Shown: positions 452-20,789, numbered from the stretch's first letter. The stretch is DNA of 64,000 bases from an uncultured delta proteobacterium (GCA_963785725.1 CAWAWS010000007.1:704001-768000), one strand, 5' to 3'. Numbers and translations: made by a program. The notes: generated by a model not told the origin, from the sequence alone.

Positions 452-546
452 CACCAAGTCCCTGTCGACGATGGTATGCAGTCCGCGCGACGCGAGCAAG
501 CGACGCCGTTCCCACGCCCGTGGGCTTGCGTTACAGTCGAGCGTCG

Positions 547-1155: not shown

Positions 1156-2030
1156 TTCAAAGCGGCGCCGGGCTCGACCCGCCGAAGAAGCGGAACAGCG
1201 TCAGAATCGAACTGGCTCTTGACGTTGCGGATGATGCTGTCGCAATCGGCCAACGGCACGCGCAGCCGCTGCATGAGGTGCGCGCGCGTGCGCTCGAGCA
1301 GCCGTTCGCGCGCGGCCACGAGCCAGCGCGCCGTCGTCGTGCGATGCGCGCGATAGAGCGAGCCCAGCTGATCGATCGACAGACCGTCGAGGTAATGCTG
1401 CCGCAGTAAGTTCTTCTCGCGATCGTCGAGGCTCGTCAGCGCGGCGCCGAACGCCTCGGTGAACGCCGCGCGATGGCGCTGCTTGGCGCTCGCCTCGTGG
1501 TCGTCGTCGCGGGTCGTGATGCGCGCCAGCTGCTCGTCTTCGCTGGGCTGCTCGCGGCTCTCGCGCGTGATCAGCTTGTAGGCCGAGCGCACGGCGCTGA
1601 CCGCCAGCCACGAGCCGAGCGTGCCGCGCCCGCGAAACTGCGTGATGCGCAGCTGCCCGCCGACCTGATCGACGAACAGGTAAACCCGTAGTCGCTGTAG
1701 CAGCTCGTCGATGTCGTGGGCGTCGAGCCGCATGGCCAAGAGCGCGACGCGGGCCTTCGGCATGTAGTGCAGCTCGAACAGCCTGAGCGCCTCCGCGTCG
1801 CCATGGGCACAGGCGCAGGTCAAGTACAGCTCCTCGATCGCCAGCGACTGCGCGGTCACGACCATCGGCGCCCGCTCGGCCAAGAAGGCAGCGAACAGCG
1901 GCGCCGGCAGCGTGAACGACGACCAGCGCGCCTGCGCCTCGAGGTAGCGCCGGCGCAGCGGGTGCGCGGCCGTTACGTCGCGAAATGCGTCCAGAATCTG
2001 CTGAGTGGAGGAGTCCACGGATGTCGTCAC
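1152..2030 (-). CDS. RNA polymerase sigma-70-like factor, Myxococcales family (TIGR03001-like)
   Basis: ELYLTCACAHGDAEAL, FRGRGTLGSWLAVSAVR (region 2), LRQHYLDGLSIDQLGSLYRAHRTTTARWL (region 4 HTH). GTG start at 2030 is inferred. Confidence 0.85.
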   Translation of the reverse strand: MTTSVDSSTQQILDAFRDVTAAHPLRRRYLEAQARWSSFTLPAPLFAAFLAERAPMVVTAQSLAIEELYLTCACAHGDAEALRLFELHYMPKARVALLAMRLDAHDIDELLQRLRVYLFVDQVGGQLRITQFRGRGTLGSWLAVSAVRSAYKLITRESREQPSEDEQLARITTRDDDHEASAKQRHRAAFTEAFGAALTSLDDREKNLLRQHYLDGLSIDQLGSLYRAHRTTTARWLVAARERLLERTRAHLMQRLRVPLADCDSIIRNVKSQFDSDAVPLLRRVEPGAALN

Positions 2031-2084
2031 AGCAACGTTCGTGCCCGGTGTGCGGGCGTGGCGGCAGCGCCGATCCCGGCATGC

Positions 2085-2100
2085 GCATGGGGCGTGCCAA
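2085..2100 (-). promoter_or_regulatory. Putative sigma54 (-24/-12) promoter of the sigma-70-like gene
   Basis: Minus strand TTGGCACGCCCCATGC, exact GG-N10-GC spacing, about 55 nt upstream of the inferred start. Confidence 0.6.
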
Positions 2101-2174
2101 CCCAGGTGTAAAGTGGCGCGTGACAGCCTCGCTCTTGCCGGCGACGCGGCGGCAGTCGATGATGAGGTCGCAGC

Positions 2175-3830
2175 ATGAGCTCTTGCCTCAGCGACAGCGC
2201 CATCGCCGAGTTCATCCAAGGCGTGGCGACGGCCGAAGAGGCGCAGCTCGTCGAGGCGCACGTCGCCGACTGCCCGCTGTGCCGCAAGCTGGTGTCGGAT
2301 TTGGCGCCGGTGCTGCTGGCGCCGCCGTCGTCGTCGCCGTCGTTGCGGATGGCGCTGGCCGCGCCGGCGCGCGCGTCGCGTTGGCGCCGGCCGTTGGCGT
2401 TGGCGCTGGCGGCGTCGCTGCTCTTGGGCGGCTACGGGCTATATGCGTTGCGGCGGTCGCCGTCGTCGCTGGCGATCGTCGAGCGGGTGAGCGGCAGCGG
2501 CGACGGCGTGACGTTCGCGCTCGCCGAGCGGCTGCGGGTGACGCTGGCCGGCGCGCGCATCCGCGTCGTGCCCGGCGACGTCGTCGCGACGGCCGCGCAA
2601 GATCTCGGCGCGGCCGCCGACGAGCGCGCGTGGCGAGCGCGGCTGGGCGTGGCGCACGTCGGGTTCGTGGCGACCGAGACCGACGCGCGCGGGCAGATCG
2701 CGGCCACGCTGCAGCTCGCCGGCGCGCCGCCGATCACGGAGGCCGCGAACGATCTCGACGCGCTCGCCGATCGCTTGGATGCGCGGGTGCGCGCGCGGCT
2801 GCACGCGCCGGCCCTCAGCGACGCCGCGCGGCAGTCGGCGACGCGGCTGCTGCCGTCGGTGGCCGCCGAGACCGACTACGGCGAAGGCGTGGCGCGGGCG
2901 CGACGCGGCGACGCGGCGGGCGCCATCGCGCCGCTGACGCGCGCCGCCGCCGCCGACGCGCAGTCGCTCCTGCCGACGCTGCTGCTCGCGGAGACGCAGG
3001 CGGCGCTAGGGCTTCGTCAGGACGCCCGACAGACGGCGGCGCGCGCGCGATCGATCCTGAGCGCGACGCGCATCGAGGATGACGCGTTCATCGCGCGCAC
3101 GCTCGGCCTGTCGTCGCCGGCGGAGGCGGTGTCGGCGTTGCAGCGGCAGTGGCGGCGTTCGCCGGAGGCGTTCGAAGTCGGCGTGCAGCTCGTCGACGCG
3201 CAGCGCCGCTCCGGCGACGTGGCGGGCGCGGCGGCGACGCTCGCGGCCGTGCGCGCCGCCGCCGCCCACGCGCCGCCGGCGGCGGCCTCGGCGATCGCGC
3301 TGGCCGCCGCGCGCGTGGCGCTGGCCGCCGGCGACGCCACCGCCGCGCGCCGCTTCGCCGACGGGGCCACCGCGACGGCGACGGCAATCGGCGCGACGAG
3401 CACAGCCGTCGCCGGCCGGCGGCTCGCCAGCGCCGCCGCGCTGCTCGCCGGCGAAGTGGCCGGCGCGCGTGCCGCCGCTGCCGACGCCGTCACCCGCGCT
3501 CACGATCGCGTCGGCGCCGACGACTGGCTCGCGCTCGGCCTCGCGCAAGCCGCCGGTGATGCGCCCGAATTCGCCGCCGCGCAGCTCAGCTTCACGCACG
3601 CGTTGACGGTCGCCAAGGCGCACGAGCAGCGCGATCGCATCGCCCGCAGCCTCGACGATCTGGCGACGCTGGCGCTGCGGCAGGGCCAGCGCGCGCAGGC
3701 GGCGACGTGGCTGAACGAGCTGGTCGCGCTCAGCCAACGCGCGGGGGAGCCCGGCGCCGAAGCGGCGGCGCGGCGTCTGTTGGCCGCCAACGCCGCCCCC
3801 CCGACACCGCCGAACGCCGCGTCGCCGTAG
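2175..3830 (+). CDS. zf-HC2 anti-sigma-like domain, TM helix and Ala-rich TPR-like region
   Basis: N-terminal CLSD...EAHVADCPLCR (HxxxCxxC); TM LALALAASLLLGGYGLY; helical repeats; divergent from the sigma gene. Confidence 0.65.
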   Translation: MSSCLSDSAIAEFIQGVATAEEAQLVEAHVADCPLCRKLVSDLAPVLLAPPSSSPSLRMALAAPARASRWRRPLALALAASLLLGGYGLYALRRSPSSLAIVERVSGSGDGVTFALAERLRVTLAGARIRVVPGDVVATAAQDLGAAADERAWRARLGVAHVGFVATETDARGQIAATLQLAGAPPITEAANDLDALADRLDARVRARLHAPALSDAARQSATRLLPSVAAETDYGEGVARARRGDAAGAIAPLTRAAAADAQSLLPTLLLAETQAALGLRQDARQTAARARSILSATRIEDDAFIARTLGLSSPAEAVSALQRQWRRSPEAFEVGVQLVDAQRRSGDVAGAAATLAAVRAAAAHAPPAAASAIALAAARVALAAGDATAARRFADGATATATAIGATSTAVAGRRLASAAALLAGEVAGARAAAADAVTRAHDRVGADDWLALGLAQAAGDAPEFAAAQLSFTHALTVAKAHEQRDRIARSLDDLATLALRQGQRAQAATWLNELVALSQRAGEPGAEAAARRLLAANAAPPTPPNAASP

Positions 3831-3946: not shown

Positions 3947-6028
3947 ATGTTCGCTGCTTCCGCCTTCGTCTTTCGCCGCCGCGCTGCCTGCTTGGGCGCG
4001 GCCTTCGCCGCCTTCGTCGCCGCCGGCTGCACGTCGCCGGCGGAGGATGCGTCGTCGCTGCCGCTCGACGCCAAGGCGTCGCACCTCGTGACCTTGCGCG
4101 TGCTGGCGAGCGGCCACTACGTGCGCGCGGTGAACGGCGGCGGCGGCGACGTCGATGCCGACAGCGCGACCGCGGCCGCCGACGAGACGCTGCGGCTGTA
4201 TGACACGGCGAACGACGCCACGATCGCCGACGGCATGAAGGTCGTGCTGCAGGCGCCGAACGGCGATTACGTCGGCCTGACGTCGCACAAAGGCACGGCC
4301 GTGGACGCGACGAGCAAGTCCACGAGCTCCGAAGATCGCTTCGTGCTCGTCGATCTGACGCATCCGAAGGGCGCGGTCGTGACCGGCGATCAGGTGGCGT
4401 TCGCGACGACCAAGAGCCTGTATCTGTCGGCGGCGACGGCGAGCCCGATGAGCGGCGACGCCAAGTCGATCGGCGCGACCGAGACGTTCGTCGTCACCTT
4501 CGCCGACGCCGCCACGCCGAGCGGCGACATGGGCGCAGGCGCAGACGGCGGCAGCGCCGGCGGTGGCGGCGCGGGCGGCGGCGGCGGCGCCGGCGGCAGC
4601 GGCACCGTCGTGGGCGCGCGCGATCCGTCGGGCTTCTTCCATCCCGGCGTCGTCGTGACCGCGGGCGGGCTCGATTCGGTCAAGGCGCGCCTCGCCGCCA
4701 ACGATCCCGACTTGACGGCGGCGTTGGCGGCGCTCTTGCGCGATCTGAACGACACGACGCTGCCCGCGTGCCCGGCCGAGGACGCGTCCGGCCGCTGCCA
4801 CCTGCCGACGACGCCGGCGGCGCCGAGCGGCCACGTCACGGTCACGTGCGGCTCGCACTCGGCCGCGCCCGCCGGCGACACCTCCTGCGACGACGAGAAG
4901 TCGAACGCGCTCGCCGCCTACACGCATGCGCTCGCCTGGTACCTGCAAGGCGACGAGACGGAAGCGCAGACGGCCATCACGTTCCTCGATGCCTGGAACA
5001 ACGTCACCACGCACACCGGCTACACGTTGAACGGCACCTACTCCGACAACTCGCCCTTGCAGTGCGGCTGGACGGGCACGTTGTGGGCGCGCGCGGCCGA
5101 GCTCATTCGCTACACCTATCCGTCGACGAAGTACGCCAAAGGCTGGTCGGAGACGCAGGCGACGGCGTTCGGCGCCATGTTGACGCGCGCCATTCGGCCG
5201 TACGTCATCACGCCGGCGACGGAGAACGGCAACTGGGAGCTGAGCCAGGCCGACGCGCTCATGCAGATCTCGGTCTACAACGATCAGCTGGCCGACTTCA
5301 AAACAGCGGCCAAGAACTGGCTCCAGTTCATCAAGTACTACGTTTATCTGCAGGCGGACGGCAAGACGCCCAAGGCCGGCAACGACGTCTTCGAGTGCAC
5401 CAAGAACGGCAAGTCGTCGAGCGGCTGCGGCGTCGATTATTGGTGGGGCTTGGCCAATGCCAGCGGCTTGGCCGACGGCACGGCGCAGGAGACCTGCCGC
5501 GACCTCGAGCATGTGCAGTACGGCCTCGGCTCGGCGGTGAACGCGGCGGAGACGGCGGCGATTCAGCAGATCGCGGGCGTCGATCTGTACGGCGACACCT
5601 CGGTGCAAGGCGGGCAGCGCCTCTACGCGGCGCTCGAGTTTCAGGCCGGCCTGTTGAAGGGGCGCAGCAACTACGACATCGGCGCCGACGGCAAGAACGC
5701 GGACATGGCGCTCGTGCCCGCGCCCAGCCTGGCCTACAGCTGCGACGGCACCAACGGCTTCACCAAGGAGTCGACGGGGGCGACGCCGGCGCAGATCGCG
5801 GTGGTCGACTATGACGCGACGAAGCAGTCGAGCTATCCGGTGCAACCGATGTGGGAAGAGGGCTACAACTACTTCGTCAACGTGGCCAAGAAGCCGATGC
5901 CGAACACGGCCGCGCTGCTCACGCCGACGGCGAGCTTCAAGGGCAATCGGCCGACGCTGGCGTCGCATCCGCTGGCGTGGGAGACGCTGACGAAGCTGGG
6001 CGTGGGCGCGATCGGCTTCCCGCAGTAA
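3947..6028 (+). CDS. Lipoprotein: fascin-like beta-trefoil, Gly linker, alginate-lyase-family (alpha/alpha toroid) domain
   Basis: Lipobox VAAGC; fascin-like LASGHYVRAVNGGGGDVDA; FFHPGVVVT, NGNWELS and QETCRDLEHVQYGL motifs; RBS AGGAG at 3936. Confidence 0.7.
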   Translation: MFAASAFVFRRRAACLGAAFAAFVAAGCTSPAEDASSLPLDAKASHLVTLRVLASGHYVRAVNGGGGDVDADSATAAADETLRLYDTANDATIADGMKVVLQAPNGDYVGLTSHKGTAVDATSKSTSSEDRFVLVDLTHPKGAVVTGDQVAFATTKSLYLSAATASPMSGDAKSIGATETFVVTFADAATPSGDMGAGADGGSAGGGGAGGGGGAGGSGTVVGARDPSGFFHPGVVVTAGGLDSVKARLAANDPDLTAALAALLRDLNDTTLPACPAEDASGRCHLPTTPAAPSGHVTVTCGSHSAAPAGDTSCDDEKSNALAAYTHALAWYLQGDETEAQTAITFLDAWNNVTTHTGYTLNGTYSDNSPLQCGWTGTLWARAAELIRYTYPSTKYAKGWSETQATAFGAMLTRAIRPYVITPATENGNWELSQADALMQISVYNDQLADFKTAAKNWLQFIKYYVYLQADGKTPKAGNDVFECTKNGKSSSGCGVDYWWGLANASGLADGTAQETCRDLEHVQYGLGSAVNAAETAAIQQIAGVDLYGDTSVQGGQRLYAALEFQAGLLKGRSNYDIGADGKNADMALVPAPSLAYSCDGTNGFTKESTGATPAQIAVVDYDATKQSSYPVQPMWEEGYNYFVNVAKKPMPNTAALLTPTASFKGNRPTLASHPLAWETLTKLGVGAIGFPQ

Positions 6029-6036
6029 CTCCGTAG

Positions 6037-6152
6037 AACCTGCGCGAGCGGTCCGAGCGCAAGGCGGAGCGAGCACCGGAGCGGAGCAGCCTCTCGGGCT
6101 GTGAGCACCGGAGCACAGCGACAACGCTGCGATCGGACCGCTCGCGAAGGTT
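6037..6152. repeat. REP/MITE-like palindromic element between convergent genes
   Basis: 25-bp inverted arms 6037-6061 and 6128-6152 with 2 mismatches; internal direct repeat GAGCACCGGAGC twice. Confidence 0.65.
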
Positions 6153-8200
6153 TAGCGCAGGAAGTAGCGGCGCATGAGCCGGCCTGCCAACAGCGCCAAG
6201 CCAATCGCCAAGAGCGCCGAGATGACGAGGCCCGCCTGTTCGCCTTCGAGCTGGCCGAGCAGCGTCGCCGGCACCACGACGACGGCCACGATCGCCAGCG
6301 CCGTCTCCAGCTGCGGCTGATGCCCGCCGCGCGCCATGCGCGCCAACAGCGCGCCGACCGTCAGGCAGCCGAGCGCCACCGTCGGAATGAGGCCGAGGCC
6401 GACGCGGAAGCTCAAGTCGGGATCGGCGCTCACCGGCCGATGCGTCAAGATCTGCCACACCAGATCGAGGTGGCCGGGGCCGCAGAACACCGCGCCCAAG
6501 ACGACGATGCCGACGGCGAGCGCCGCCGCGCCCAAGCCGACGAGCCGCCAGCGCACCGGCAGCCCGCCGCGCGAGCGCGCCGCCAAGCCGAGCACGAGCG
6601 CGATGACGAGGCACAGCCCGCCGAACCATTCGCCCAGTCGCGCGTAGAGCTTGAACGGCTGCATGACGGCGACCGGCTCCAGCAGCGTCAGCGCCGGCGC
6701 GATGTGCTCGTCATCGGGATCGAACGATGGGCCATGCTTGTACAGCTTGCCGGTCGCGTCGACGTAGGCGCTGACGCCGGTGTTGACGGCGCGCACCAGG
6801 TCGAGCCGCGACTCGACCGCGCGATAGACGGCCAGCGCCAAGTGCTCGTACGGCTCCGACGTCTTGCCGAACCAGGCGTCGTTGGTGATGTTGATGAGCA
6901 CGTTCGGGTCGCGCATCGTCAAGCGGCGGCCGAATGACGGGAAGATGTCCTCGTAGCAGATCATCGGGCCGATGCGCACCGTCGAGCCGTCGGGGCGCAC
7001 GAGCGGAAAGATGGCGACGTCGGTCCCGCGCGCGAAGTTCGACATCTCGGGGAAGCTCTTCAGGATCGGCAAGAGCTGCTCGTAATAGGGCACGTATTCG
7101 CCGAACACCATGAGGATGTTCTTGTCGAAGGTGCCGCGAATGTCGGACTTCTCGTCGAGCAGCAGCGCCGAGTTGTACGGATAGGGCGTCGACGCGCGGT
7201 TCTCGGCGATCGTCAGCGTGCCGAACAGGAGCGGCGTGTGGAAGCCGACCTTGACCTCGCGCGCGTCACCGACGGGCCAATCGTGGGTCTGCTCGCGGAA
7301 GAAGTGATACGGATAGGACGACTCGGGCCACAAGATGAGGTCGGCGCCGCGCTGCTCGAGCTCGCGGGCGAGCTGCTGATGAATCTGCAGCTGCTGGCGC
7401 GCCAATTGCGGCTGCCACTTCTCGTGAATGCCGATGTTGGCTTGCACGAGCCCGATATTGAGCTTTGGCGCCGCCGCGCGCGCCTTCGACACCTGATGAA
7501 TGCGCACGGCGCCGTAACCGAACGAGAACGACAAGACGGCGAGGGCCAGCGCCAGCCGACGCAGCGGCAGCGGCCGCTTCAGCCGGCGCGCCTGCCAGGC
7601 GTCGAAGATGGCGCCGTTCGACAGCACGAGGATGAACGAGACGCCGAGCGGGCCGGTCAAGTCGGCGATCTGAATGACCGGCCGCACCCACGCTTGCGTG
7701 ATCGCGAGGTACCACGGAAACACGAACGGTACGACGAGCTCGAGCGCGACATAGATGACCGGCGCGATGAAGGCCATTCCCGAATCGGGAAAACGATTAT
7801 TCAATTTGCGAATACAATATGCGAAAGCGGTGAAGGTAATCGCTTGATAGCTGACCAGTAAGAGGAAGATGGGGATGGCGGCGACGATCGGCAGGTGGCC
7901 GAAGCGTTGCAGGAAGCCGACGATCCAGTAGAAGCCGCCGCCGTTGGCGAAGAGGCCGCAGACGTAGCCGTAGAACGCCGGGCGCTTCGTCGTCGGATGC
8001 AGCGCGACGGCGATGAGCGGCACGAGGGCGAACCAGGTCAGCGGCCAGATGTCGAAGTCGGCGCAGCTGAGGAATAAGAGCGTGCCCGAGAGCACCGACA
8101 GCAGCGTCTTGACGAGGTGCTCGCGGGTGACGCGCGGCGTGCGGTCGGCTTTGCGACGCGCGCCCAAGTCGATGACGTCGGACTTCGACTTCTTGGCCAC
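6152..8200 (-). CDS. lnt: Apolipoprotein N-acyltransferase with C-terminal TM extension
   Basis: N-terminal TM bundle; VQANI, WPES, DKNILMVFGEYVP, ICYED (E-K-C triad), NITNDAWFG, RAVNTGVS. Confidence 0.93.
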   Translation of the reverse strand: MAKKSKSDVIDLGARRKADRTPRVTREHLVKTLLSVLSGTLLFLSCADFDIWPLTWFALVPLIAVALHPTTKRPAFYGYVCGLFANGGGFYWIVGFLQRFGHLPIVAAIPIFLLLVSYQAITFTAFAYCIRKLNNRFPDSGMAFIAPVIYVALELVVPFVFPWYLAITQAWVRPVIQIADLTGPLGVSFILVLSNGAIFDAWQARRLKRPLPLRRLALALAVLSFSFGYGAVRIHQVSKARAAAPKLNIGLVQANIGIHEKWQPQLARQQLQIHQQLARELEQRGADLILWPESSYPYHFFREQTHDWPVGDAREVKVGFHTPLLFGTLTIAENRASTPYPYNSALLLDEKSDIRGTFDKNILMVFGEYVPYYEQLLPILKSFPEMSNFARGTDVAIFPLVRPDGSTVRIGPMICYEDIFPSFGRRLTMRDPNVLINITNDAWFGKTSEPYEHLALAVYRAVESRLDLVRAVNTGVSAYVDATGKLYKHGPSFDPDDEHIAPALTLLEPVAVMQPFKLYARLGEWFGGLCLVIALVLGLAARSRGGLPVRWRLVGLGAAALAVGIVVLGAVFCGPGHLDLVWQILTHRPVSADPDLSFRVGLGLIPTVALGCLTVGALLARMARGGHQPQLETALAIVAVVVVPATLLGQLEGEQAGLVISALLAIGLALLAGRLMRRYFLR

Positions 8201-8201
8201 G

Positions 8202-9131
8202 TTACGTCCGCGCGCGCACGTTGAGCGCGCCCGGCAAGAGCTCGAACGTCGCCGGCAAGCGGCCCGGCTGCTCGCCGTCGACGTCGAGCAGGACTTCGGC
8301 GCCGTTGGTCGCGCGCGCTTCGATCTTGCGCGCGCGAACGACCGAGACTTTGGGGTTCTGCAGGTGCTTGCCGGTGTAGACGTCGAGGCCGCGCAGGAGC
8401 ATGTCGCCGAAGTTGAAGTCGCCCAAGGTGACGACGTCGAAGTAGCCGTCGTCGAGCGCGGCGTCGGGCGCTATTTTCATGCCGCCCCCGAAGTAACGGC
8501 CGTTGGCGACGGCGACGTTGTAGATGCGTCCCTCTTTGGCGCTGCCGCCGTCGTAGCGGATTTCACAGCTGACGTTCTTGTAGCTGGCGCCCGCTTTCAA
8601 CGTCGCGATGGCGAACGAGAGCGTGCCGCCGAGCGCCTTCGACGACTGGTTGGCGTAGCGATCGACCAGGCCGCCGATGCCGAAGCTGGCGATGTTGATG
8701 AAGTGGCGGACCGCCTCGTTGCCGTCGTTGCCGACGTAGCACAGGCGGCCGACGTCGATGGCGCGGGCCGGTGACCGCAAGGCGGCGGCGGCGGCGGCGG
8801 TGTCGCGCGGCACCGACAGCGTCTTGATGAAGTCGCCGCCGGTTCCCGCGGGCAGGATGCCGAAGGCGGCGGCGGGGTTGATGGCCGCGTCGCCGTCGAA
8901 AAACCCGTTGACGACCTCGTTGATGGTGCCGTCACCGCCGACGGCGACGATGAGCTCGGCGCCGTCGCGCAAGGCCTCGCGCGTCACGCGGATGGCGTCG
9001 CCGTGGCCGCGCGTGAAGCGCTCTTCGAACGGGCCGTAGGCTTCGTGGATGATGGCGCGGAGCTGCGGCCAGCGACGCTCGGTCTTGCCGCCGGCGGACT
9101 GCGGATTGATCACGAGCACGGTTCCCGACAT
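8202..9131 (-). CDS. Diacylglycerol kinase family (YegS/DgkB-like) lipid kinase
   Basis: INPQSAGG, GGDGTINEVVNG, PAGTGGDF, NGRYFGGG, DVDGE. Confidence 0.92.
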   Translation of the reverse strand: MSGTVLVINPQSAGGKTERRWPQLRAIIHEAYGPFEERFTRGHGDAIRVTREALRDGAELIVAVGGDGTINEVVNGFFDGDAAINPAAAFGILPAGTGGDFIKTLSVPRDTAAAAAALRSPARAIDVGRLCYVGNDGNEAVRHFINIASFGIGGLVDRYANQSSKALGGTLSFAIATLKAGASYKNVSCEIRYDGGSAKEGRIYNVAVANGRYFGGGMKIAPDAALDDGYFDVVTLGDFNFGDMLLRGLDVYTGKHLQNPKVSVVRARKIEARATNGAEVLLDVDGEQPGRLPATFELLPGALNVRART

Positions 9132-9171
9132 GCCGCGCACGATATCACGCGACGGCCAGCCACGACGACGG

Positions 9172-10251
9172 CTACGGTGACTCGGTGACGGCTTGGGCGA
9201 GGACTTCGATGAGGTCGAGCGCCTGCACGCCGTCGCGGTTGAGACGGCGGGTGCAGGTCGGGCAGGAAGAGACGACGGTGGAGGCGCCGGCCTGTTTGAC
9301 CTCGGTCAAGCGCGCCTGTGCGATGGCGTCGGCCGTCTCCGGCATCGTCGCCGGCAACAGGCCGCCGCCGCCCGAGCATTCGGACTCGTGGCGCGACCGC
9401 GAGAACTCGCGCACGTCGTCCATCGTCTTGCGCAGGAGGCGCCGCGGCGGCTCGTAGACGCCCATCCAGCGGCCGAGGTGACAGGGGTCGTGATAGAACG
9501 TCGGCTCCCGTCGCTGCTTGACCGGCAGGCGCTCGACGAAGCTCTCCAGGAACTCGCTCGAATGCTCGACGCGCGGCTTCAACGGCACGCCGAAGGCGCG
9601 ATATTGCGTCTTCATCGCCCACGCGCAGGCCGGGCAGTGCACGACGACGCGCGCGTAACCTTCGAGCTGCTTGGCCATGCGCTCGGCGTGCAGGCGAAAC
9701 GCGTCGTGCAGACCGCCGGCGAAGAGCGGATAGCCGCCGCAGCCGTGGTCGCCCGCGGTCACGCCCACGTAGTCGGCGCCGATGCGATCGCACAGCTGCA
9801 GCATCGTCGTCGCCAGCTCCGGCTTCTCGCAGCCGGGAAAGAAGGCCACTTGCGCTTCGGTCGGCCGCTTGTGCGCGGGCACGAGCGCGCGCGTCTTCGC
9901 CGCCGCCGCCACCGACTTCGCCTGCATGCGCGGCAAGAGCTGGCGCAGCGCCGGATGGCCGCGTCCGTCGCGCTCGGCCTCGGCGCGACCTTGCATGAGC
10001 GCGATGCCGGGCTCGACTTTGTGTTGGCAGGCGTCGGTGCAGGCGCCGCAGCCGCTGCAGCCGTAGAGCGGCGTGGTTTGCTCGATCGTGGCCGGCAGCT
10101 CGCCCAGCTGCAACGAGCGCATCGTCGCCATCTTGTCGCGCGGCGTCAGCGATTCGTTGGCCGTCGCGTTCGACACCGGGCAGGTATGGCGGCACAGCTT
10201 CGGGCAATACGTGCAGTACGACAGCGACGTCTGCAGATCGGGCGGCGACAT
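9172..10251 (-). CDS. GlcF/GlpC-like Fe-S protein (ferredoxin plus two CCG domains)
   Basis: CTYCPKLCRHTCP, CSGCGACTDAC, FFPGC, HCPAC, HDPCHLGR, CSGGGG, SCPTC. Confidence 0.88.
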   Translation of the reverse strand: MSPPDLQTSLSYCTYCPKLCRHTCPVSNATANESLTPRDKMATMRSLQLGELPATIEQTTPLYGCSGCGACTDACQHKVEPGIALMQGRAEAERDGRGHPALRQLLPRMQAKSVAAAAKTRALVPAHKRPTEAQVAFFPGCEKPELATTMLQLCDRIGADYVGVTAGDHGCGGYPLFAGGLHDAFRLHAERMAKQLEGYARVVVHCPACAWAMKTQYRAFGVPLKPRVEHSSEFLESFVERLPVKQRREPTFYHDPCHLGRWMGVYEPPRRLLRKTMDDVREFSRSRHESECSGGGGLLPATMPETADAIAQARLTEVKQAGASTVVSSCPTCTRRLNRDGVQALDLIEVLAQAVTESP

Positions 10252-10254
10252 GTC

Positions 10255-11289
10255 TTAGGCTCCGGGCCAGGCGGCGAAGCGGCGATCGGGATCGAGCCGC
10301 CGTTTGAGCGCGTTCCACAACGCGTGCGGCGCCGCCGGCGGCTGCGCCGGGCGCTCGACGTCGACGACACAGGCGCCGCCGACGTGCCAGCCGACGACGC
10401 GCACGGCGTCGCCGACGAGCGCGCCCGCCGGCACTTCGGAGTCGATCGTCTCCAGCGCCACCGCGCGTTCGTACGGCGGCTTTTGCGCGCGCGGCGGCGG
10501 CGCGAACGACACCGTCGCGCCGTCGTGGGCGCGCACGATCGACTCCGCCAGCGCGCGCTCGGCCTGCACCAGCGGCTCGGGCCCGTCGACCTGCAGCGAC
10601 AAGATGCCGGTCGCCAGCACCGTCAGCTCCGCCGGACGACCGCCGCGCACGATGAGCTCACGCGCCGCCAGCAGCGCCGCCTTCAGCGACGGCAAGCGGA
10701 ACGACGTCTCGAGCTGCGTCTCCTGCCGCCGCTGCACGCGAATCGTCGCCGACGTGATGAGGCCGAGCGTGCCGCGGGCGCCGATGATGGCGTGCATCAA
10801 GTCGGGCCCGGTCGCTTTGCGCGGCGCCAGGCGCGTCGTGATTTCGGTGCCGTCGGGCAAGATGGCGGCGATGCCGGCGCATTGGTTGACGAAGCGGCCG
10901 TGGCGCGGCGACGCCTCCGACGCGCGTGGCGCCGCCAACAGCGCGCCCAGCGTGCGCTCGCGCGACCACGGCGGCAGCGGGCCCAGCGTCATGCCGCGCT
11001 CGGCGAGCAGCCGCTCGAGCGCGTCGACGGTCACGCCCGCCTGCGCCGACACCAACAGCGACGTCTCGTCGACGTGCAAGACGTTGTGCATGCGCGACAG
11101 GTCGAGCGTCACCGACTCCGCCGCCGGCACGACGACGCCGACGAGCGCACCCACTTCGGCCGCGATGCGCACGACGTCGACGATCTCGGCCGGCGCGCCC
11201 GGCTTGACGACGACGCGCCCGCCGTCGCTGGCGACGTTCGCCGCGCCGACCGCGTGCGCCAGTCGATCGGACCAAAAGGGCGTGTTCAT
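10255..11289 (-). CDS. Short FAD-binding oxidoreductase, GlcE-like
   Basis: ATG 11289 overlaps the upstream stop; LDLSRMHNVLHVDE, AQAGVT, RKATGPDL, GARGTLGLIT, LKRRLDP; no C-terminal HG motif. Confidence 0.8.
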   Translation of the reverse strand: MNTPFWSDRLAHAVGAANVASDGGRVVVKPGAPAEIVDVVRIAAEVGALVGVVVPAAESVTLDLSRMHNVLHVDETSLLVSAQAGVTVDALERLLAERGMTLGPLPPWSRERTLGALLAAPRASEASPRHGRFVNQCAGIAAILPDGTEITTRLAPRKATGPDLMHAIIGARGTLGLITSATIRVQRRQETQLETSFRLPSLKAALLAARELIVRGGRPAELTVLATGILSLQVDGPEPLVQAERALAESIVRAHDGATVSFAPPPRAQKPPYERAVALETIDSEVPAGALVGDAVRVVGWHVGGACVVDVERPAQPPAAPHALWNALKRRLDPDRRFAAWPGA

Positions 11290-12884
11290 AGCCCCATCTT
11301 CCCCGGGTTCATGATGCCGCCGGGATCGAGCACGTCTTTGAGCGCGTGATAGATGCTCATCGCCTGCCCGTGCTCGTCGGGCATGAACGGCGCCTTCGAC
11401 AAGCCGACGCCGTGATGGTGCGAGATGGTCGCGCCCACGCGCGTCACCGCCGACAAGCCGGCGCGCCAGATGTCGTCGTACTTCTTGGCGGCGTCCGACG
11501 GTGAATGGCCGCGCGCGGCGAACGTGAAGTAGATCGAGCAGCCGTCGGCGTAGGCGTGGGAAAAATGCGCCATGATGAAGGCCAAGGGGCCGACGGCCTC
11601 GCGCACCGCGCGGTAGAGCTCGAGCAGCTTGTCCCAGCTCGTGGCCACTTCCATGGTGTCGACGAAGGCGCCGGCGTCGAACACCTTGGACATGCGGAAG
11701 CTGACGGAGTAGCGATGGTCGAGCCAGCGCTGGCCGGGACCTTCGCCCAAGTCGCGGCCGCCGGCGCGCGTCAGCTCGGCCGTCGCCGCCCGCGCTTCGG
11801 CCTCGGTCAGGCCACGATCGCCCTCGAAGCCGACGATGAGCAAGCAGCCGTTCTGCGCATACGGCAACAGCTTCGCGGCAAACTTGTTGATCAGCTCGGG
11901 ACGCGTCAGCGCCGCCGCCATCGCGCGCTTCTTCCACTCGGCGATGACGCCTTTGCCCGACGGCCTGAGCAACGACAGCCAATTTTCCATCGCTGCTTCG
12001 GGCGCCGCTTCCGGATCGGCCTGTGGCGCGTCGCCGTGATCTTTTTCGCCGCGATGCAGGAACGAGTCGAGCTCGTCGTAGAGCCGCACGCACGCCGGCC
12101 GCAAGTTCCGCTGCAGGAGCCGCCGAATCGCCTCGCAGCCGGCGGCGACGCGCGGAAACGCCCAGCCGCGATAGTGCCGCGTCTCCGGCAGCGGCCGCAC
12201 CGTCACCGTCGCGCGCGTGATGATGCCGAGCGTGCCTTCGGAGCCGACGAGCCACTGCGCGATGTCGGGCGTGGCGCCGGCGGCGACGTCGTGCACCTCG
12301 CCGCGGCCGTCGACGAACGTCAGCCGCCGCACCATGTCCTCGATCTTGCCGTACTTCGTCGAGAACTGACCGGCCGAGCGCGCCGCCAGCCAGCCGCCGA
12401 ACGTCGAGCACATGATCGACGACGGGAAGTGGCCGAGCGTCAACCCGCGGCGATTGAGCTCGTGCTCGAGGTGCTCGCCCAAGATGCCCGCTTCCACCGT
12501 CGCCGCGCCCGCTTTGACGTCGACGTCGACAATCGCGCGCATGCGCTTCAGATCGACGACGAGGCCGCCGTGAATCGGCAGCGTGCCGCCGCAGACGCCG
12601 GAGCCGGCGCCGAACGGCACGATCGGCGTCGCCGTGCGCGCCGCCGCTTTGATGATGGTGACGACTTCGTCCGTGGTCGTCGGCCACACGACGGCGTCGG
12701 GCGGATGCACGGCGGGATTGCCGCCGGTGGCGACGATGAGCCCGCGCGGCCAGAGGTCACGCGCGTAGGCGACGCAATCGGGCGGCGTCGTGGAGACGCG
12801 GCCGGGCAGGGCGCGCGTCAGCTCTGCGACGAGCTCGACAGTGCGCGCGGCGACGGGCGGCATGGCTGGCAGAGTATCACTCAT
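11286..12884 (-). CDS. Alkyl-dihydroxyacetonephosphate synthase-like FAD protein
   Basis: PFGAGSGVCGG, GHFPSS, STFGGW, STKYGKIED, GSEGTLGII, DTMEVA, SHAYADGCSIYFTF, ISHHHGVG, DPGGIMNPGK. Confidence 0.85.
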   Translation of the reverse strand: MSDTLPAMPPVAARTVELVAELTRALPGRVSTTPPDCVAYARDLWPRGLIVATGGNPAVHPPDAVVWPTTTDEVVTIIKAAARTATPIVPFGAGSGVCGGTLPIHGGLVVDLKRMRAIVDVDVKAGAATVEAGILGEHLEHELNRRGLTLGHFPSSIMCSTFGGWLAARSAGQFSTKYGKIEDMVRRLTFVDGRGEVHDVAAGATPDIAQWLVGSEGTLGIITRATVTVRPLPETRHYRGWAFPRVAAGCEAIRRLLQRNLRPACVRLYDELDSFLHRGEKDHGDAPQADPEAAPEAAMENWLSLLRPSGKGVIAEWKKRAMAAALTRPELINKFAAKLLPYAQNGCLLIVGFEGDRGLTEAEARAATAELTRAGGRDLGEGPGQRWLDHRYSVSFRMSKVFDAGAFVDTMEVATSWDKLLELYRAVREAVGPLAFIMAHFSHAYADGCSIYFTFAARGHSPSDAAKKYDDIWRAGLSAVTRVGATISHHHGVGLSKAPFMPDEHGQAMSIYHALKDVLDPGGIMNPGKMGL

Positions 12885-12962
12885 GGCTGCGCCATGAGCA
12901 GACCATCGATTGGCTGGCCCTCCGGGCCGGACGCTCACGCTCGCTCGCTCTGCGCGCTCGCT

Positions 12963-14610
12963 TCAGCGACGGAACATGCGGGTCCGCGCGACGACGCCGC
13001 GATAGTGCTCGACCTCGGCCTTGACGCGCGCCTCGTCCCAGCCGAGCTTGGGCGCCATGCGCTTGGCCACGCGTTCGGCGCAGCCGAGCCCTTGATCGCG
13101 GCCGCGCAGGATGAGCTGCACGCGCCGGCCGAGCACGTCCTCGACCGACAGCGCCTGCTCCTCGTCGACGGCCACGTCTACTTGCGCCTCGATATAGGGC
13201 AGCTCGGGATCGAGCCGGCGACCGGCGGACACGTCCGCTTTGACGCGCGCCACGACCGACGGCGCCCGCGCGCCATACGTCGACGCCAGCTGCTTGGCCA
13301 CCGCGCCGTCGACGCTGCCTTCGGCCGCGATGTCGTCCTGCAGCTTGGTGACGCCCGCGTAACCCGCTTCGTACACGGCGCCGGCCGCGCCCGGCAGCGG
13401 CCGATCGGCGGTGCGCGCAGGGCGCGATCTCGCCGAGCTGCTTGCCCGCGTGCTCGACGACTTCCGCGGCCATGCGGCGATAGGTCGTCAGCTTGCCGCC
13501 GGCGATGGTCACGAGGCCCGGCCGCTCGACGATGCTGTGCTCGCGCGACACATCCGACGCCGTCTCGGTGTCGCTGTCGGGCTTCAAGAGCGGCCGCAAG
13601 CCGGCCCACGTCGCCAACACGTCTTCGGATTTTAGTTTCGCTTCCGGGAAATAGTTGTTCGCCAGCGCAAGTAAGTAGTCGACGTCGTCCTGATCGGTGT
13701 GCACGTCTTCGGGCTTGCCGTCGTAGAACGTGTCGGTGGTGCCGATGACCGTGCGATCGCCGCCCCACGGAATGCAAAAGACGATGCGCTTCTTCTGCTT
13801 CATCACGACGGCGTGGCGCGGGTTGAGCCGCGCGGCGTCGACGACGAGGTGCACGCCTTTGGACGTGTGCAGGATGCCGGCGTCGCCGGCGAGCGCGCGG
13901 ATCTCGTCGCACCACGGCCCGGTGGCGTTGATGGTGACGCGCGCGCGGATCGGCAAGGTCGCGCCTTCGCCTTCGACGGCTTGCACCTCGGCGCCGGCGA
14001 TGCGGTCGCCGTCCTTGATGAGCTTGACCGCGCGCGTGTAGTTGACGATGGCCGCGCCCAGCGCCCGCGCGTCGAGGACGTTCTCCATCGTCAGCCGCGC
14101 GTCGTCGGTGGCGCAGTCGTAGTAGAGCAGGCCGCCTTCGAGCGCGTCGAGCTTGAGGCCGGGCTCGAGCTTCGCCAGCGGCCCGGCGCGCACCGTGCGA
14201 TGCAGCTTCGGCGACGAGAACTTCGACATGCCGTCGTAGATCCACAAGCCGACGTCGAGCACGAACAGGCCCGGCTTGTCGGCTTTGTAGACCGGCAGCA
14301 GGAACTCGAGCGGACGCACCAGATGCGGCGCCACCTTCATGAGCAGCGCGCGCTCGTTGGTGCCTTCGAACACGAGCCGAAACTGCGCGTGCTCCAGGTA
14401 GCGAAAGCCGCCATGCACCAGCTTCGACGACTTCGACGACGTGCCCGACGCGAAGTCGCTCTTCTCGACGAGCGCCACCTTCAAGCCGCGCAGCGCCGCG
14501 TCGCGCGCGATGCCCACGCCGGTGATGCCGCCGCCGATGACCAGCACGTCGAACTGCTCGGACGAGAGTCGCCCCAGCGTCGCCGCGCGCGCTTGCAGTG
14601 CCGAAGTCAT
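12963..14610 (-). CDS. glpD: FAD-dependent glycerol-3-phosphate dehydrogenase/oxidase (one apparent +1 frameshift near 13413)
   Basis: IGGGITG, DFASGTSSKSSKLVHGGFRYL, NATGPW, GTTD, WAGLRPL, GGKLTTYR; C-terminal domain (EEQALSVEDVLGRR) continues in the next frame to the stop at 12963. Confidence 0.9.
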
Positions 14611-14619
14611 GATGAACGC

Positions 14620-16468
<1,849 letters not shown>

Positions 16469-16568
16469 GGGGCGCAATATAACGCAGCCCGTTAGGCAAT
16501 CAACGCGCTCTTCTAATAGGTACGCTAGCGTTGACGTTCGTGAGGCAAAGATTGTACGCTGGCACGGC

Positions 16569-17540
16569 ATGCGGATTGTCCCGGCGACTTGCCCGATGTG
16601 TGGCGGTGAATACGACCCGCTGCGTGCCCGGGCGACCCTCGTCGTCGACGGTAAAGTGCGCGCGTACTGCTCGGCGGCGTGCAAGGAAAAGGCGTCGCGT
16701 CCGCCTCCGGACTTGCCGATCGGCGAGGTCGACGAAGCCCCCGAAGAGCCGCATCACATTCCGTCGCTTTTCAAGCGCCTGTCGTGGCGTGGCACGGCCG
16801 GGCTCGCCGCCGTCGGGCTCATCGTGCTCGCCTGCGGCGGCAAGCTGATCGGCTCGGCGCCGCCGGCGCTGGCGTCGATCGCGCCCGCCGTCAAGCTGCC
16901 GCCGCCCAAGCCCGTGCCGACGGTGGACGACGCGATGGCGATGCTCGCGTCCGCGCCCACGCCCACCGAGCGCGATCTCTGGTTCCATCCGCTGCCGGGG
17001 CCGAAGCGCATGCTGCCCGAGCGCGACACCCGCCGCTTTGGCGCCGCGCGTGAAGGCATGCGCCCCGAAGAGTGCGCCGGTGGCCACTGCGGCGTCGACA
17101 TCGGCACCGTCGAGGGCATGATCGTGTTGGCGGCGCACGACGGCGTCGTCGAGCGGGTCGAGCGCGACGCCGAGGTCGGCGGCCGTCGCGGCAACGAAGG
17201 TCGCTTCGTGCGCATCAACCACAAGGGCGGCACCGTCGTCACCAGCTACATCCACTTGGAAGCGATCCGCGAGGATCTGAAGCCGGGCATCCCGGTCAAA
17301 GCCGGCGAAGCCATCGCCACCGTCGGCGCGACCGGCGTGCAGCACTCGGGCCCGCACCTGCACTTCGCCGTCAGCGTGCGGCCGAGCGCCGACGGTCCCG
17401 AGCTGTACATCGATCCCGAGCCGCTGTTGCATCTGTGGCCGCTGGCGCCGCGGCCGGCGGCGACGCTGCACGCCATGTCGTCGGCCTCGCCCAAGCATCC
17501 CAAGACCGCGCAGATCGACGACGCCGGCTCCGATCTCTAG
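16569..17540 (+). CDS. M23 metallopeptidase with N-terminal Cys metal finger and TM helix
   Basis: CPMC...YCSAAC; TM; HCGVD (HxxxD), SYIHL, GPHLHF (HxH), IDPEPLL. Confidence 0.88.
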   Translation: MRIVPATCPMCGGEYDPLRARATLVVDGKVRAYCSAACKEKASRPPPDLPIGEVDEAPEEPHHIPSLFKRLSWRGTAGLAAVGLIVLACGGKLIGSAPPALASIAPAVKLPPPKPVPTVDDAMAMLASAPTPTERDLWFHPLPGPKRMLPERDTRRFGAAREGMRPEECAGGHCGVDIGTVEGMIVLAAHDGVVERVERDAEVGGRRGNEGRFVRINHKGGTVVTSYIHLEAIREDLKPGIPVKAGEAIATVGATGVQHSGPHLHFAVSVRPSADGPELYIDPEPLLHLWPLAPRPAATLHAMSSASPKHPKTAQIDDAGSDL

Positions 17541-17613
17541 TATCTAAGTATCCAGTATCTGTCGGCTTTGTGGATTCTACTGAAAACCGGCCGGTGATGG
17601 TTACTATACAGCC
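17541..17613 (+). promoter_or_regulatory. AT-rich promoter region of cysC-cysH
   Basis: AT-rich spacer; AGTATC repeated three times (17539-17559); TACTAT/TATACA -10-like box just before the ATG. Confidence 0.4.
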
Positions 17614-18171
17614 ATGACGAAGGGGTTCGCGTTGTGGCTCACGGGCATGTCGGGCGCGGGCAAGTCGACGCTCTCGCAGCCCGTCGCCGCGCGCTTGAAG
17701 GAGCTCGGCCATCGCGTCGAATTGCTCGACGGCGACGTCGTGCGCACCAACTTGTCGGCCGGCCTCACGTTCAGCAAAGAAGATCGCGACATCAACGTGC
17801 GGCGCATCGGCTTCGTCGCCAACTTGCTGGCGCGCAACGGCGTCGTCGCCATCACCGCCGCCATCTCGCCCTATCGCAGTGTGCGCGACGAGGTGCGCGC
17901 GCTCGTCACCGGCGACGGCTCCGGCTTCGTCGAGGTGTTCGTCACCGCGCCCGTCGAAGTGCTCGCCAAGCGCGACGTCAAAGGGCTGTACAAGAAGGCG
18001 CTGGCCGGCGAAATCGGCAGCTTCACCGGCGTCAGCGATCCCTACGAGCCGCCGCTGGCGCCCGAGGTCGTGGTCGATTCGTCGTCGGAGACGGTGGAAG
18101 CGGGCGTGGAAAAGGTGCTGGCCAAGCTGCGCGAGCTCGGCTACGTGAGCGCCGGCAGCGTCGCCGCATGA
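17614..18171 (+). CDS. cysC: Adenylyl-sulfate kinase
   Basis: [54 protein letters not shown]. Confidence 0.97.
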
Positions 18172-18860
18172 ACGTCGCCGACGCTCGCGCCGCGCTCGCC
18201 GGCCGCACGCCCGAAGAAGTCCTCGGCTGGAGCTTCGCGCAATTCCCGCGCATCGCCATCTCCACGGCGTTCGGCCCCGAAGGCTGCGCCTTGGTCGCGA
18301 TGGCGGCGAAAATAAAACCCGATATCAAAGTCTTCACGATCGATACCGATTTCCTGTTTCCCGAATCGATCGCGCTGCGCGAAAAGTTCGTGGCGAAATA
18401 TGGGATTCAGCTGGAAGTGATGCGCGGACGAGTGACGCTCGCGCAGCAGAACGCGCGCCACGGGCTCGATTTGTGGCAGCGCGACACCGACCAATGCTGC
18501 GCGCTGCGCAAGATCGAGCCGACGGAGCGCGCGCTGCACGGCCTCGACGCCTGGATCGCCGGTTTGCGCCGCGATCAAGGCGCGTCGCGCGCGGGAATCG
18601 ACGTCGTCGAAGAGTACGATCGCTCCGAAGGCGTCCTCTACAAGATCAATCCGCTGTTGAATTGGACGCGCAAAGATACGTGGGATTATCTAATTAAGAA
18701 CGACATTCCCTATAATCCGTTATTGGACCAGGGATATAAATCGATCGGCTGCTGGCCGTGCACCAAAGCGGTCGGCGCCGACGCCGACGAGCGCGCCGGC
18801 CGCTGGGGTGGTCAAAAGAGCGAGTGCGGCATTCACACGTTCATGGCGCGAAAGGCCTAA
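18168..18860 (+). CDS. cysH: APS/PAPS reductase, Fe-S type
   Basis: [49 protein letters not shown] overlap with cysC. Confidence 0.95.
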
Positions 18861-18879
18861 GCCAACTATATTGAAAGCC

Positions 18880-19737
18880 GTGAAGATCGCGCATTTCTCG
18901 GACGTACACGCGCTGTCGCTGACCGGCGCGCGGCCCTGGCACTTTTTCAACAAGCGGGCCGCAGGGTTCATGAACTTGAAGCTGCATCGCGGCGAGAAGC
19001 ATCCGGTGCGGCTGTTTCGCGCGATCGTGGCCGATCTGAACGCGTCGCCCGTCGATCACATCATCTGCACCGGCGATCTGACGAACCTCTCGCTGACGGG
19101 CGAGTTTTCGCTGGCGCGCGAGATCCTCGACGGCATCGCGCTCGGCCCGCACGGCGTCACCGTCGTGCCCGGCAATCACGACGTGTACACGTGGGGCGTG
19201 CAGCGCCGGCAGCCGTTCCACGCGCAGTTCGCGCCTTACGCGACGTCGGACGGCGCGGCGACGGTGGAATTTCCGTCGCTGCGCGTGCGCGGTGACGTCG
19301 CCGTCGTCGGCTTGTCGACGGCCGTGCCGTCGCCGCCGCCGTGGGCCGACGGTCGGCTGGGCCCGGCGCAGCTCGACCGGCTGGAGAGCGCGCTGACGAA
19401 GCTCGACGGTAAATTTCGCATCGTGGCGCTGCATCACCCGCCGTACACGAACCGGCACGCGGTCTTGCGCGGCTTGCGCGATCGCGAGGCGCTGCAGGCG
19501 ATCTTGGCGCGCGTCGGCTGCGAGCTGGTGCTGCACGGCCACGAGCACCGCGACCTGCGCAACGAGCTGCCGGGGCCGCGCGGGCCGATCCCCGTCATCG
19601 GCGTCGGCTCGGGCACCTACGACGACCATCGGCCCGAGCGCCGCGCGCGCTACAACGTCTACACGATCGAAGACGGCCGCCTCGTCAACGTCGAGACGCG
19701 CATCCACGACGCCGCCTCCGATCGCTTCGCCGCGTAA
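18880..19737 (+). CDS. Calcineurin-like metallophosphoesterase
   Basis: SDVH, TGDLTN, PGNHD, LHHPP, HGHEH. Confidence 0.9.
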   Translation: MKIAHFSDVHALSLTGARPWHFFNKRAAGFMNLKLHRGEKHPVRLFRAIVADLNASPVDHIICTGDLTNLSLTGEFSLAREILDGIALGPHGVTVVPGNHDVYTWGVQRRQPFHAQFAPYATSDGAATVEFPSLRVRGDVAVVGLSTAVPSPPPWADGRLGPAQLDRLESALTKLDGKFRIVALHHPPYTNRHAVLRGLRDREALQAILARVGCELVLHGHEHRDLRNELPGPRGPIPVIGVGSGTYDDHRPERRARYNVYTIEDGRLVNVETRIHDAASDRFAA

Positions 19738-19747
19738 TCCGTAGCGA

Positions 19748-20569: not shown

Positions 20570-20665
20570 CTCGCCTTCATCTTAAGCCCTACTAGGGCGC
20601 CGAGCGCAGCAGCGACGGTCGTCGCGGCTGTCAGCCGTCGAGCGGGCGGGCCCTGCGCTCGGCAG

Positions 20666-20681
20666 TGGCACATCGGATGCT
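20666..20681 (+). promoter_or_regulatory. Putative sigma54 promoter of the RimK-KGG operon
   Basis: TGGCACATCGGATGCT, exact GG-N10-GC spacing, intergenic, about 110 nt upstream of ATG 20790. Confidence 0.65.
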
Positions 20682-20789
20682 TTGTTCCTGCGTGTCGGTT
20701 CGCGTCGCACCGCAAGCCTCGTGTTTGCCGCCGCGGTGGAACCCGAACGGATCGAAAAGGAAACGAGGCGATCAAATCGGTCGAGACCC

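Follow-up and report, generated by a model that had tools for sequence, protein, structure and literature searches.

What does a flavoprotein of the alkyl-dihydroxyacetonephosphate synthase (ADPS, or AGPS) family do when it is encoded together with a shortened paralogue and an iron-sulfur protein? The question is raised by a run of genes in a 64,000-nucleotide stretch of DNA from an uncultured delta proteobacterium (GCA_963785725.1, CAWAWS010000007.1:704001-768000), here called the window, in whose coordinates positions are given throughout. Three genes of this run, whose products we call subunits A (11286-12884), B (10255-11289) and C (9172-10251), constitute a real, conserved and apparently uncharacterised three-subunit system. 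Our best reading, to which we assign a probability of about 0.42, is that A-B-C is an ADPS-derived flavin/iron-sulfur dehydrogenase that would oxidatively cleave alkyl-dihydroxyacetone phosphate (alkyl-DHAP) in the breakdown of alkylglycerols. Its parts differ in strength: we are fairly confident that A, B and C would form a complex with redox wiring, and a DHAP lipid seems the better guess for the substrate; the whole alkylglycerol-breakdown pathway, in which the substrate and direction steps are inferred, is put forward tentatively. The genes of the run are as follows.

12963-14610, minus strand: glpD, FAD-dependent glycerol-3-phosphate dehydrogenase with DAO and DAO_C domains; an extra base lies near 13420.
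11286-12884, minus strand: subunit A, ADPS/AGPS-family flavoprotein of 532 aa with FAD loop 88-99, R267, Y452 and H489-H491.
10255-11289, minus strand: subunit B, ADPS-fold protein of 344 aa lacking FAD-binding loop and HHH, PRKATGPD loop kept; putative structural partner.
9172-10251, minus strand: subunit C, 359 aa, with two [4Fe-4S] ferredoxin motifs and two CCG domains.
8202-9140, minus strand: lipid kinase of the YegS/Rv2252/BmrU family (TIGR00147, 169.6 bits, cut-off 118.65); start GTG 9140 or ATG 9131.
6152-8200, minus strand: apolipoprotein N-acyltransferase Lnt, 682 aa, extended at its C-terminus by a hydrophobic stretch (TIGR00546, 270.9 bits, cut-off 132.9).

All six genes are co-directional and follow aspS, with spacings of 10 nt between aspS and glpD, 31 to 40 nt between C and the kinase gene, and 1 nt between the kinase gene and lnt. 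The stop codon of A lies within the start of B (an ATGA overlap), and 3 nt separate the stop codon of B from the ATG of C. An earlier note on this DNA had described six tightly packed same-strand genes after aspS, and open reading frames (ORFs), Pfam and NCBIfam all bear it out. As a conserved unit, however, the six-gene operon does not hold up: among 133 distinct loci, counted here and below over those with enough sequence, Lnt is adjacent in 20/101 and GlpD or GlpA lies upstream of A in 14/99. The order of A, B and C, which are adjacent across many families, is beyond chance, and these three genes are the conserved unit. Scans of the region for promoters (two promoter-like sites, 0.7 expected) and terminators (five terminator-like sites, 5.9 expected) gave nothing usable.

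Subunit A is a member of the ADPS family. In phmmer searches against solved structures it scored 224 bits with 2uuu (Dictyostelium ADPS), 181 bits with 4bby (guinea pig) and 118 bits with D-lactate dehydrogenase, and its profile alignment to 2uuu spans positions 7 to 514 of 516. The best Foldseek match of its predicted structure (predicted local-distance score, pLDDT, 88) is AGPS, with a TM-score of 0.79 to 4bca and 25 to 27% identity in the fold search. As the earlier note had read, the 532-aa translation contains ISHHHGVG (residue 487) and CSIYFTF (residue 449) and lacks GEHG. In a quick tree of 70 proteins, none of them eukaryotic, A falls with the ADPS family and apart from GlcD and Dld (SH-aLRT 100). 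The phylogeny that the earlier note had proposed as a check thus agrees with phmmer, Foldseek and the HHH motif on this assignment.

These results bear on whether A-B-C could be a 2-hydroxy-acid dehydrogenase of the GlcDEF/Dld type with the lipid genes as bystanders. Such a reading would account for the layout of catalytic, degenerate and ferredoxin-CCG subunits, which is that of glcDEF, and for the top NCBIfam match of A, TIGR00387 (glcD); in addition, an approximately unbiased (AU) test does not reject a grouping of B with GlcE/GlcD/Dld (p 0.276). We nevertheless regard it as very improbable: scores stand far below the cut-offs (A 170/568 for glcD, B 38/284 for glcE, C 36/333 for glcF), A has HHH in place of GEHG and groups with the ADPS family, and the source genome has separate GlcD- and Dld-like genes.

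We gathered 103 orthologues of A; the alignment comprises the 101 that exceed 430 aa. R267 (equivalent to Arg352/419) is present in 101/101 and Y452 (Tyr508/578) in 100/101; HHH (H489-H491) is found in 99/101, and the other two lack that region. R352, Y508 and, on mutagenesis evidence, R447 (Arg447/515) are listed as important for ADPS catalysis in the passage of a review cited here (PMC3509576), on whose legend, with printed alignments, our residue roles rest. R391, Y392, D409 and T410 are invariant in the A clade. A helical insert (270-346) occupies the ADPS gating region of A; it measures 51 to 110 aa across A orthologues, against 40 to 42 aa at the same site in the AGPS type and 16 to 23 aa in FGGY-linked relatives. 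A lacks the PRxxxGP loop of AGPS.

The proximity to AGPS has its limits. In the same tree, A is separate from a mammal-like AGPS type, which adjoins a FAR-acyltransferase gene. We rejected A as an orthologue of MXAN_1676, given its separate clade, its 181 bits to 4bby versus 572 for the loci that we take to represent the MXAN_1676 type, and its loss of Arg447/515, a residue that alignment shows to be kept by both the mammal-like type and a Streptomyces type. Database entries for A orthologues often bear the name 'alkyldihydroxyacetonephosphate synthase'; judging from sequence, A would build on the scaffold of ADPS, yet the AGPS label is not appropriate for it. The top homologues of A carried only labels of metagenome-assembled genomes, with no named cultured strain among them. 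By the labels of the closest homologues, the source genome seems to be that of a Polyangia-type myxobacterium. In four loci (L120, L145, L146, L147), ADPS-like genes occur as a tandem pair with HHH, Tyr and Arg retained in each, and in three of them the pair is followed by C and glycoside-hydrolase-like genes.

Subunit B had been proposed in the earlier note as a GlcE-like FAD protein and electron carrier, overlapped by A and followed 3 nt on by the iron-sulfur gene. The arrangement is as stated; the GlcE assignment is disfavoured by profile scores and tree, the AU test above leaving that alternative. B (model pLDDT 90) is ADPS-like by a small margin, and a profile built from 55 B-type proteins scores 133 to 229 bits with the A clade and 146 with YgcU, compared with 63 for GlcD and 32 for GlcE. 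In a tree of FAD domains, 17 short B proteins form a single clade (96/98), nested within the ADPS family (94/96). B is thus most likely a decayed duplicate of A, and it probably is not an electron carrier, since its FAD-binding loop is lost; HHH is lacking as well. A search of the phylum with the B profile (242/301) mixed B with other FAD oxidases and was left unused.

The states of B across loci form a graded series. Eight loci have no B, four carry it as an intact duplicate and four as a duplicate whose HHH has decayed; then come shortened proteins of roughly 250 to 475 aa (the present type), stubs of 150 to 200 aa, and fusion to A. Fusion occurs in 26/103 loci and requires at least five changes on the tree. 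The path from single gene to duplicate, decayed partner and fusion is a clear case of pseudo-enzyme evolution. The PRxxxGP loop is present in A in 16/16 loci where B is absent or long and in 2/78 loci where B is short or fused, and B keeps it in 82/83. Because the loop is lost in A and kept in B, the pattern suggests an A-B heterodimer in which B would supply the loop, itself of putative role. Minimal versions are seen in seven loci (L207-L209 and L215-L218), where A is fused to a B stub and C measures 177 to 285 aa with its ferredoxin part kept.

Subunit C carries cysteine motifs for two [4Fe-4S] ferredoxin clusters (C13/16/20/24 and C65/68/71/75) and two CCG domains, all conserved in 60 aligned copies. 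It matches 10 NCBIfam models, in each case short of the cut-off; GlpC comes second-best (100 bits versus 278), and for the glcF model the score is 35.6 bits against a cut-off of 333, although the domain set is common to both. The closest solved relative is 9ojn (E 4.5e-43), whose length matches that of the described EtfD; no flavoprotein-CCG complex was found among the solved relatives of C. EtfD is described, in the passage cited, as a wire from a flavoprotein to menaquinone (PMC13083937), and the function of the ferredoxin/CCG domains in GlcF and GlpC is called less defined in the part of a preprint cited here (bioRxiv 10.64898/2026.08.18.745454). The sole other CCG protein found in the source genome (L244, G000:C2:264889-267099) is a 737-aa frame of EtfD/FadF-like size.

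C follows A across genomes. It adjoins A in 94/119 loci, and in 5/5 genomes without an adjacent C it is encoded elsewhere; we therefore rejected the idea that Polyangiaceae-type loci have lost it. In a sample of 301 genomes of the phylum, with E thresholds of 1e-150 for A (a single match per genome) and 1e-62 for C, A was found in 142 genomes, C in 105 and both in 97. Direct reading of the remaining eight C-only genomes revealed A in all of them, giving A in 105/105 genomes with C. Conversely, 14 of the 45 A-only genomes were checked, and a divergent C lay downstream in 14/14; both ferredoxin motifs are present in 9/10 of the divergent sequences read, and the gene call of the tenth (L207) starts after the first motif. 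Related genomes are not independent, and we claim no p-value for this co-occurrence.

A structural prediction points the same way. We modelled A (22-532), B (57-190) and C (5-357) together, scoring C, with three controls. C docked on A with a score of 0.85, the best control reaching 0.00; the mark used is passed by 116/157 solved pairs and 2/215 mismatched pairs and applies roughly to the present three-chain run on alignments of our own. The runs share at least 96% of their contacts, and the partner pLDDT is at least 88. The contacts place residues 8-77 of C, the region of the first cluster, on the FAD domain of A (31-159, including 91-95 and 155-159) and on helix 392-403; no C-B contact is listed. 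The ferredoxin domain of C is thus predicted to bind the FAD domain of A. The proposal of the earlier note that the flavoprotein is wired to a ferredoxin-CCG protein is consistent with gene order, co-occurrence and this docking model, which together would tie A to a dedicated partner.

Might C instead be the electron carrier of GlpD, that is, a GlpC, with A and B as mere neighbours? GlpC being its second-best NCBIfam match, and glpD lying in the same gene run, would suit this. Yet C tracks A (94/119) and not glpD (14/99), loci with a full GlpABC (L089, L098) keep a separate C, and the docking model predicts binding to A; we rejected the assignment, which has hardly any likelihood left. In seven loci (L124, L137, L116, L132, L136, L141, L144), a ferredoxin-type gene of 138 to 206 aa, resembling a cut-down GlpC, stands just before A, with or without glpAB.

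Regarding the other neighbours, a YegS-type kinase gene lies beside A in 59/110 loci. Lnt is loosely linked and probably a passenger. No match to FAR, an FGGY kinase or an ETF was found in the A loci, and acyltransferase matches there were limited to L115 and L128, on the opposite strand. Relatives of A have other company: shorter ADPS-like proteins adjoin sugar-type kinases and in two cases glpD, and one Streptomyces ADPS-like copy adjoins an acyltransferase. In ten loci labelled Archangium or Myxococcales (L085, L092, L094, L100, L103, L107, L111, L114, L117, L129), a metallo-beta-lactamase-fold gene is divergent from A.

Together, the lipid kinase, GlpD and the long insert at the gating region make oxidative cleavage of alkyl-DHAP the best reading of A-B-C. 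Two precedents bear on such chemistry. In nitroalkane oxidase, hydrolysis of an iminium yields an aldehyde and reduced flavin, and vanillyl-alcohol oxidase, of the same fold family as A, cleaves a methyl ether by oxidation. In the proposed pathway, the kinase would phosphorylate 1-O-alkylglycerol and GlpD (GlpABC in other lineages) would oxidise the resulting alkyl-glycerol-3-phosphate to alkyl-DHAP. As in ADPS, Tyr452 of A would then take the C1 proton, the carbanion would add to flavin N5 and the alcohol would leave. Water would attack in place of a second alcohol, giving hydroxypyruvaldehyde phosphate and reduced flavin, and C would hand the electrons on, probably to quinone. B would take the place of the second copy in the ADPS homodimer and provide the PRxxxGP loop that A has lost. 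By analogy, a dedicated iron-sulfur partner is what an enzyme using water for alcohol would need.

The first steps follow what is described for ADPS itself. According to the passages of the review cited, a Tyr there abstracts the C1 proton, the resulting carbanion attacks N5 of the flavin, and after loss of the leaving group an alcohol attacks the iminium (PMC3509576). The same passages report that the ADPS flavin becomes reduced with acyl-DHAP alone, by way of an N5 adduct for which nitroalkane oxidase is the precedent; the adduct is also noted in an excerpt of PMC7662398. M. xanthus stores alkylglycerol lipids according to the part of PMC9131029 cited here; A-B-C is known to us from other genomes. 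The earlier note had left open whether an ADPS-like subunit 'cleaves or forms' the ether with electron transfer. Forming is disfavoured by the context, and cleavage is the reading that we prefer, at the probability given at the outset.

Several points weigh against this reading. The position of Arg447/515 (398, Met here) is M, Q, L or W in A orthologues and Arg in 0/101, and therefore the substrate of A may not be alkyl-DHAP; the adjacent position 397 is R or K in 84/101, and the invariant R391 may or may not substitute. GlpD or GlpA is as rare upstream of A as stated above, GlpB occurs in five loci, and the glpD here, with ordinary motifs and as the only copy found in the genome, may merely serve glycerol-3-phosphate. 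C is without a membrane anchor, which makes its link to quinone hypothetical, and in some lineages C has shrunk to 177 to 285 aa and its first CCG domain has decayed. The docking, with trimmed chains, no cofactors and own alignments, lies outside the calibration and scored C, not A-B, and the interface residues are only a little more conserved than others (0.63 vs 0.57; 0.52 vs 0.48). Finally, the A/B loop swap counts as a single event in evolution; testing it on independent pairs yielded one pair only.

The missing arginine also lends itself to another explanation, in which the A-B-C dehydrogenase acts on some other phosphorylated glycerol derivative (for example an acyl-DHAP or lysolipid released as membranes turn over, or a small DHAP with a substituent) without cleaving any ether. 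The clade-specific invariant residues R391, Y392, D409 and T410 would fit a changed substrate, and other ADPS-like proteins adjoin sugar-type kinases and ABC or MFS transporters. A thioesterase gene follows the kinase gene in eight of the Archangium- or Myxococcales-labelled loci, and a PAP2 gene stands beside some A copies. However, the linked kinase is of the YegS type, with no FGGY kinase match in the loci, and the insert of A is long, as in lipid-acting AGPS; moreover, an acyl ester would presumably need only a lipase, not a flavin/iron-sulfur enzyme. We regard this explanation as doubtful.

A different explanation concerns ether synthesis. The source genome encodes ElbD (L241, G000:C2:123666-129191), an 1842-aa protein in which the FAR, ACS, ACP and acyltransferase parts are fused to an epimerase-family domain, and no MXAN_1676-type gene was found in this genome (88% completeness). 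Since, in the part of PMC9131029 cited, the step that forms the ether in the ElbD route is called unknown, A could be a true ether-forming synthase, possibly supplying that step; kinase and GlpD would provide acyl-DHAP, and C would re-oxidise stray reduced flavin. It would suit this that ADPS depends on flavin in the oxidised state and gives rise to a reduced species that is stable to oxygen, as the review passage states (PMC3509576), and that A is single-copy and widespread. Yet A and ElbD do not track each other across the 301 genomes: ElbD is found in 95, together with A in 64, A alone in 78 and ElbD alone in 31, and in one family ElbD is present in 10/11 genomes and A in 0/11. This poor co-occurrence leaves A as an obligatory partner of ElbD unsupported. 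No FAR match lies beside A, Arg447/515 is lost, and, for a repair role, keeping a partner with several clusters in all the lineages that were checked would be a large cost. In a single case (L245, G271:C1:1663857-1673100), a displaced C lies about 1.2 kb from elbD in divergent orientation, with a YegS-type kinase gene after elbD; it would favour a link to ElbD. Overall, we think a role of A in ether formation unlikely and retain oxidative cleavage as the preferred reading.

The ORF at 14610-12877 is not the whole of glpD. Its reading frame changes at an extra base near 13420, and DAO_C ends at 12963 in another frame, putting the true end of glpD about 80 nt before A. The gene is intact (551 to 561 aa) in three of four same-genus relatives; in the fourth, many genes are broken. 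The extra base is absent from a near-identical soil contig, no other available contig being clearly closer. Similarly, aspS (14621-16468) is split into four frames in the present assembly, is intact (613 to 616 aa) in three same-genus relatives, and has no extra bases in near-identical contigs. Because the soil contig lacks the base and aspS shows the same kind of indel, the glpD frameshift is probably an assembly error, and a true pseudogene is disfavoured. In addition to the two Pfam domains, all five motifs that we take to form the glycerol-3-phosphate site were found; the N-terminal 396 aa alone score 331 against an NCBIfam cut-off of 360, and no second glpD was found in the genome at its 88% completeness. 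The gap between glpD and A varies, from about 80 nt here (12885-12962) to an inserted gene in one relative (L032/L073; 9225-9716 in L032), and is absent in close soil contigs.

Elsewhere in the window, 3947-6028 encodes a 693-aa protein with a predicted lipoprotein-like start and weak DUF7910 and alginate-lyase matches, and 520-3830 holds a TPR protein, an ECF-sigma-like ORF with no Pfam match and a zf-HC2/TPR protein that may be an anti-sigma factor. Upstream of aspS, 16467-21707 carries M23 peptidase, APS kinase, metallophosphoesterase, Memo-like and RimK-like genes as well as a PAPS-reductase-like ORF, the last judged by eye.

How does A-B-C compare with known systems? With AGPS/ADPS (EC 2.5.1.26), A shares the fold, FAD loop, HHH, Tyr508/578, Arg352/419 and the presence of a large insert where the gating region lies. 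In contrast to these redox-neutral enzymes, the A system lacks Arg447/515 and a FAR neighbour and has a decayed duplicate and a ferredoxin-CCG partner. The MXAN_1676-1674 type, represented by L065 and L068 as inferred from context, belongs to the same family and phylum, but it scores 572 bits with 4bby versus 181 for A, keeps the Arg, lies beside a FAR-acyltransferase gene and forms a separate clade. AGPS is a standard example of a flavoenzyme without net redox change in the review passage cited (PMC3509576), a statement that would change if A-B-C belongs to the AGPS family and catalyses a net redox reaction. In surveys, agps homologues are taken as a sign of ether-lipid production (passages of PMC13159169 and bioRxiv 10.64898/2026.06.23.733905), and the A clade may do the opposite. 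In the parts cited, AGPS phylogeny is left unresolved in work on a myxobacterial origin of plasmalogen synthesis (PMC13012113), and AF0868 is called a putative D-lactate dehydrogenase (PMC3949148). The literature that we searched, mostly open-access texts without supplements, yielded no description of the A-B-C system.

Clusters with related logic exist in other bacteria. The earlier note had pointed to a mycobacterial cluster, which we take to comprise glpD1, an ADPS-like flavoprotein and a diacylglycerol kinase. For a mycobacterial plasmid match, neither glpD nor a kinase gene was listed in the surrounding 4 kb; the combination was found in actinobacteria, as a glpD-TetR-ADPS-like-YegS cluster in Streptomyces and Tsukamurella. 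That cluster has the same trio of GlpD, ADPS-like protein and YegS-type kinase, but the Streptomyces protein is of another subfamily, with Arg kept and a 24-aa insert, and no B or C was found in the stretches read; we found no characterisation of it in the same literature search. In E. coli, the ygcU cluster (ygcNOP, ygcQRSUW, ygcE) combines an ADPS-like protein carrying HHH with genes annotated as encoding a kinase and a dehydrogenase, along with two flavoproteins and a 4Fe-4S protein. It differs in its sugar-type kinase, short insert and lack of CCG, and it is annotated as putative only; its carriers are presumably of the ETF type. By analogy, there would be a recurring logic in which a kinase, a glycerol-phosphate dehydrogenase and an ADPS-like enzyme with an electron outlet act in turn. 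The domain set of C resembles those of EtfD/EMO, HdrBC and GlpC, but C lacks the membrane/heme part.

The nearest functional counterpart of the proposed reaction is AGMO, an unrelated protein that likewise oxidises the 1-O-alkyl bond to a hemiacetal-level product. In the passage cited, AGMO needs O2 and tetrahydrobiopterin and is called the only known alkylglycerol-breakdown enzyme (PMC7911779). An oxygen-independent oxidative etherase on an AGPS scaffold, in about half of the sampled Myxococcota genomes, is a possibility that we advance with caution; if true, ether lipids could be turned over without O2 or a monooxygenase, and AGMO would no longer be the sole route. The claim is testable with three expressed proteins and defined lipids. 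In architecture, the closest match is E. coli GlcDEF, which like A-B-C combines a catalytic subunit of the vanillyl-alcohol-oxidase type, a shortened paralogue and a ferredoxin-CCG subunit, and whose GlcE, like B, keeps a loop before GxEG that the catalytic subunit has lost. GlcDEF has a GEHG active site, as opposed to HHH and Tyr in A, and because B scores with the ADPS family and not with GlcE, the shared layout appears to be convergent. If so, A-B-C would represent an independent re-invention of the GlcDEF layout.

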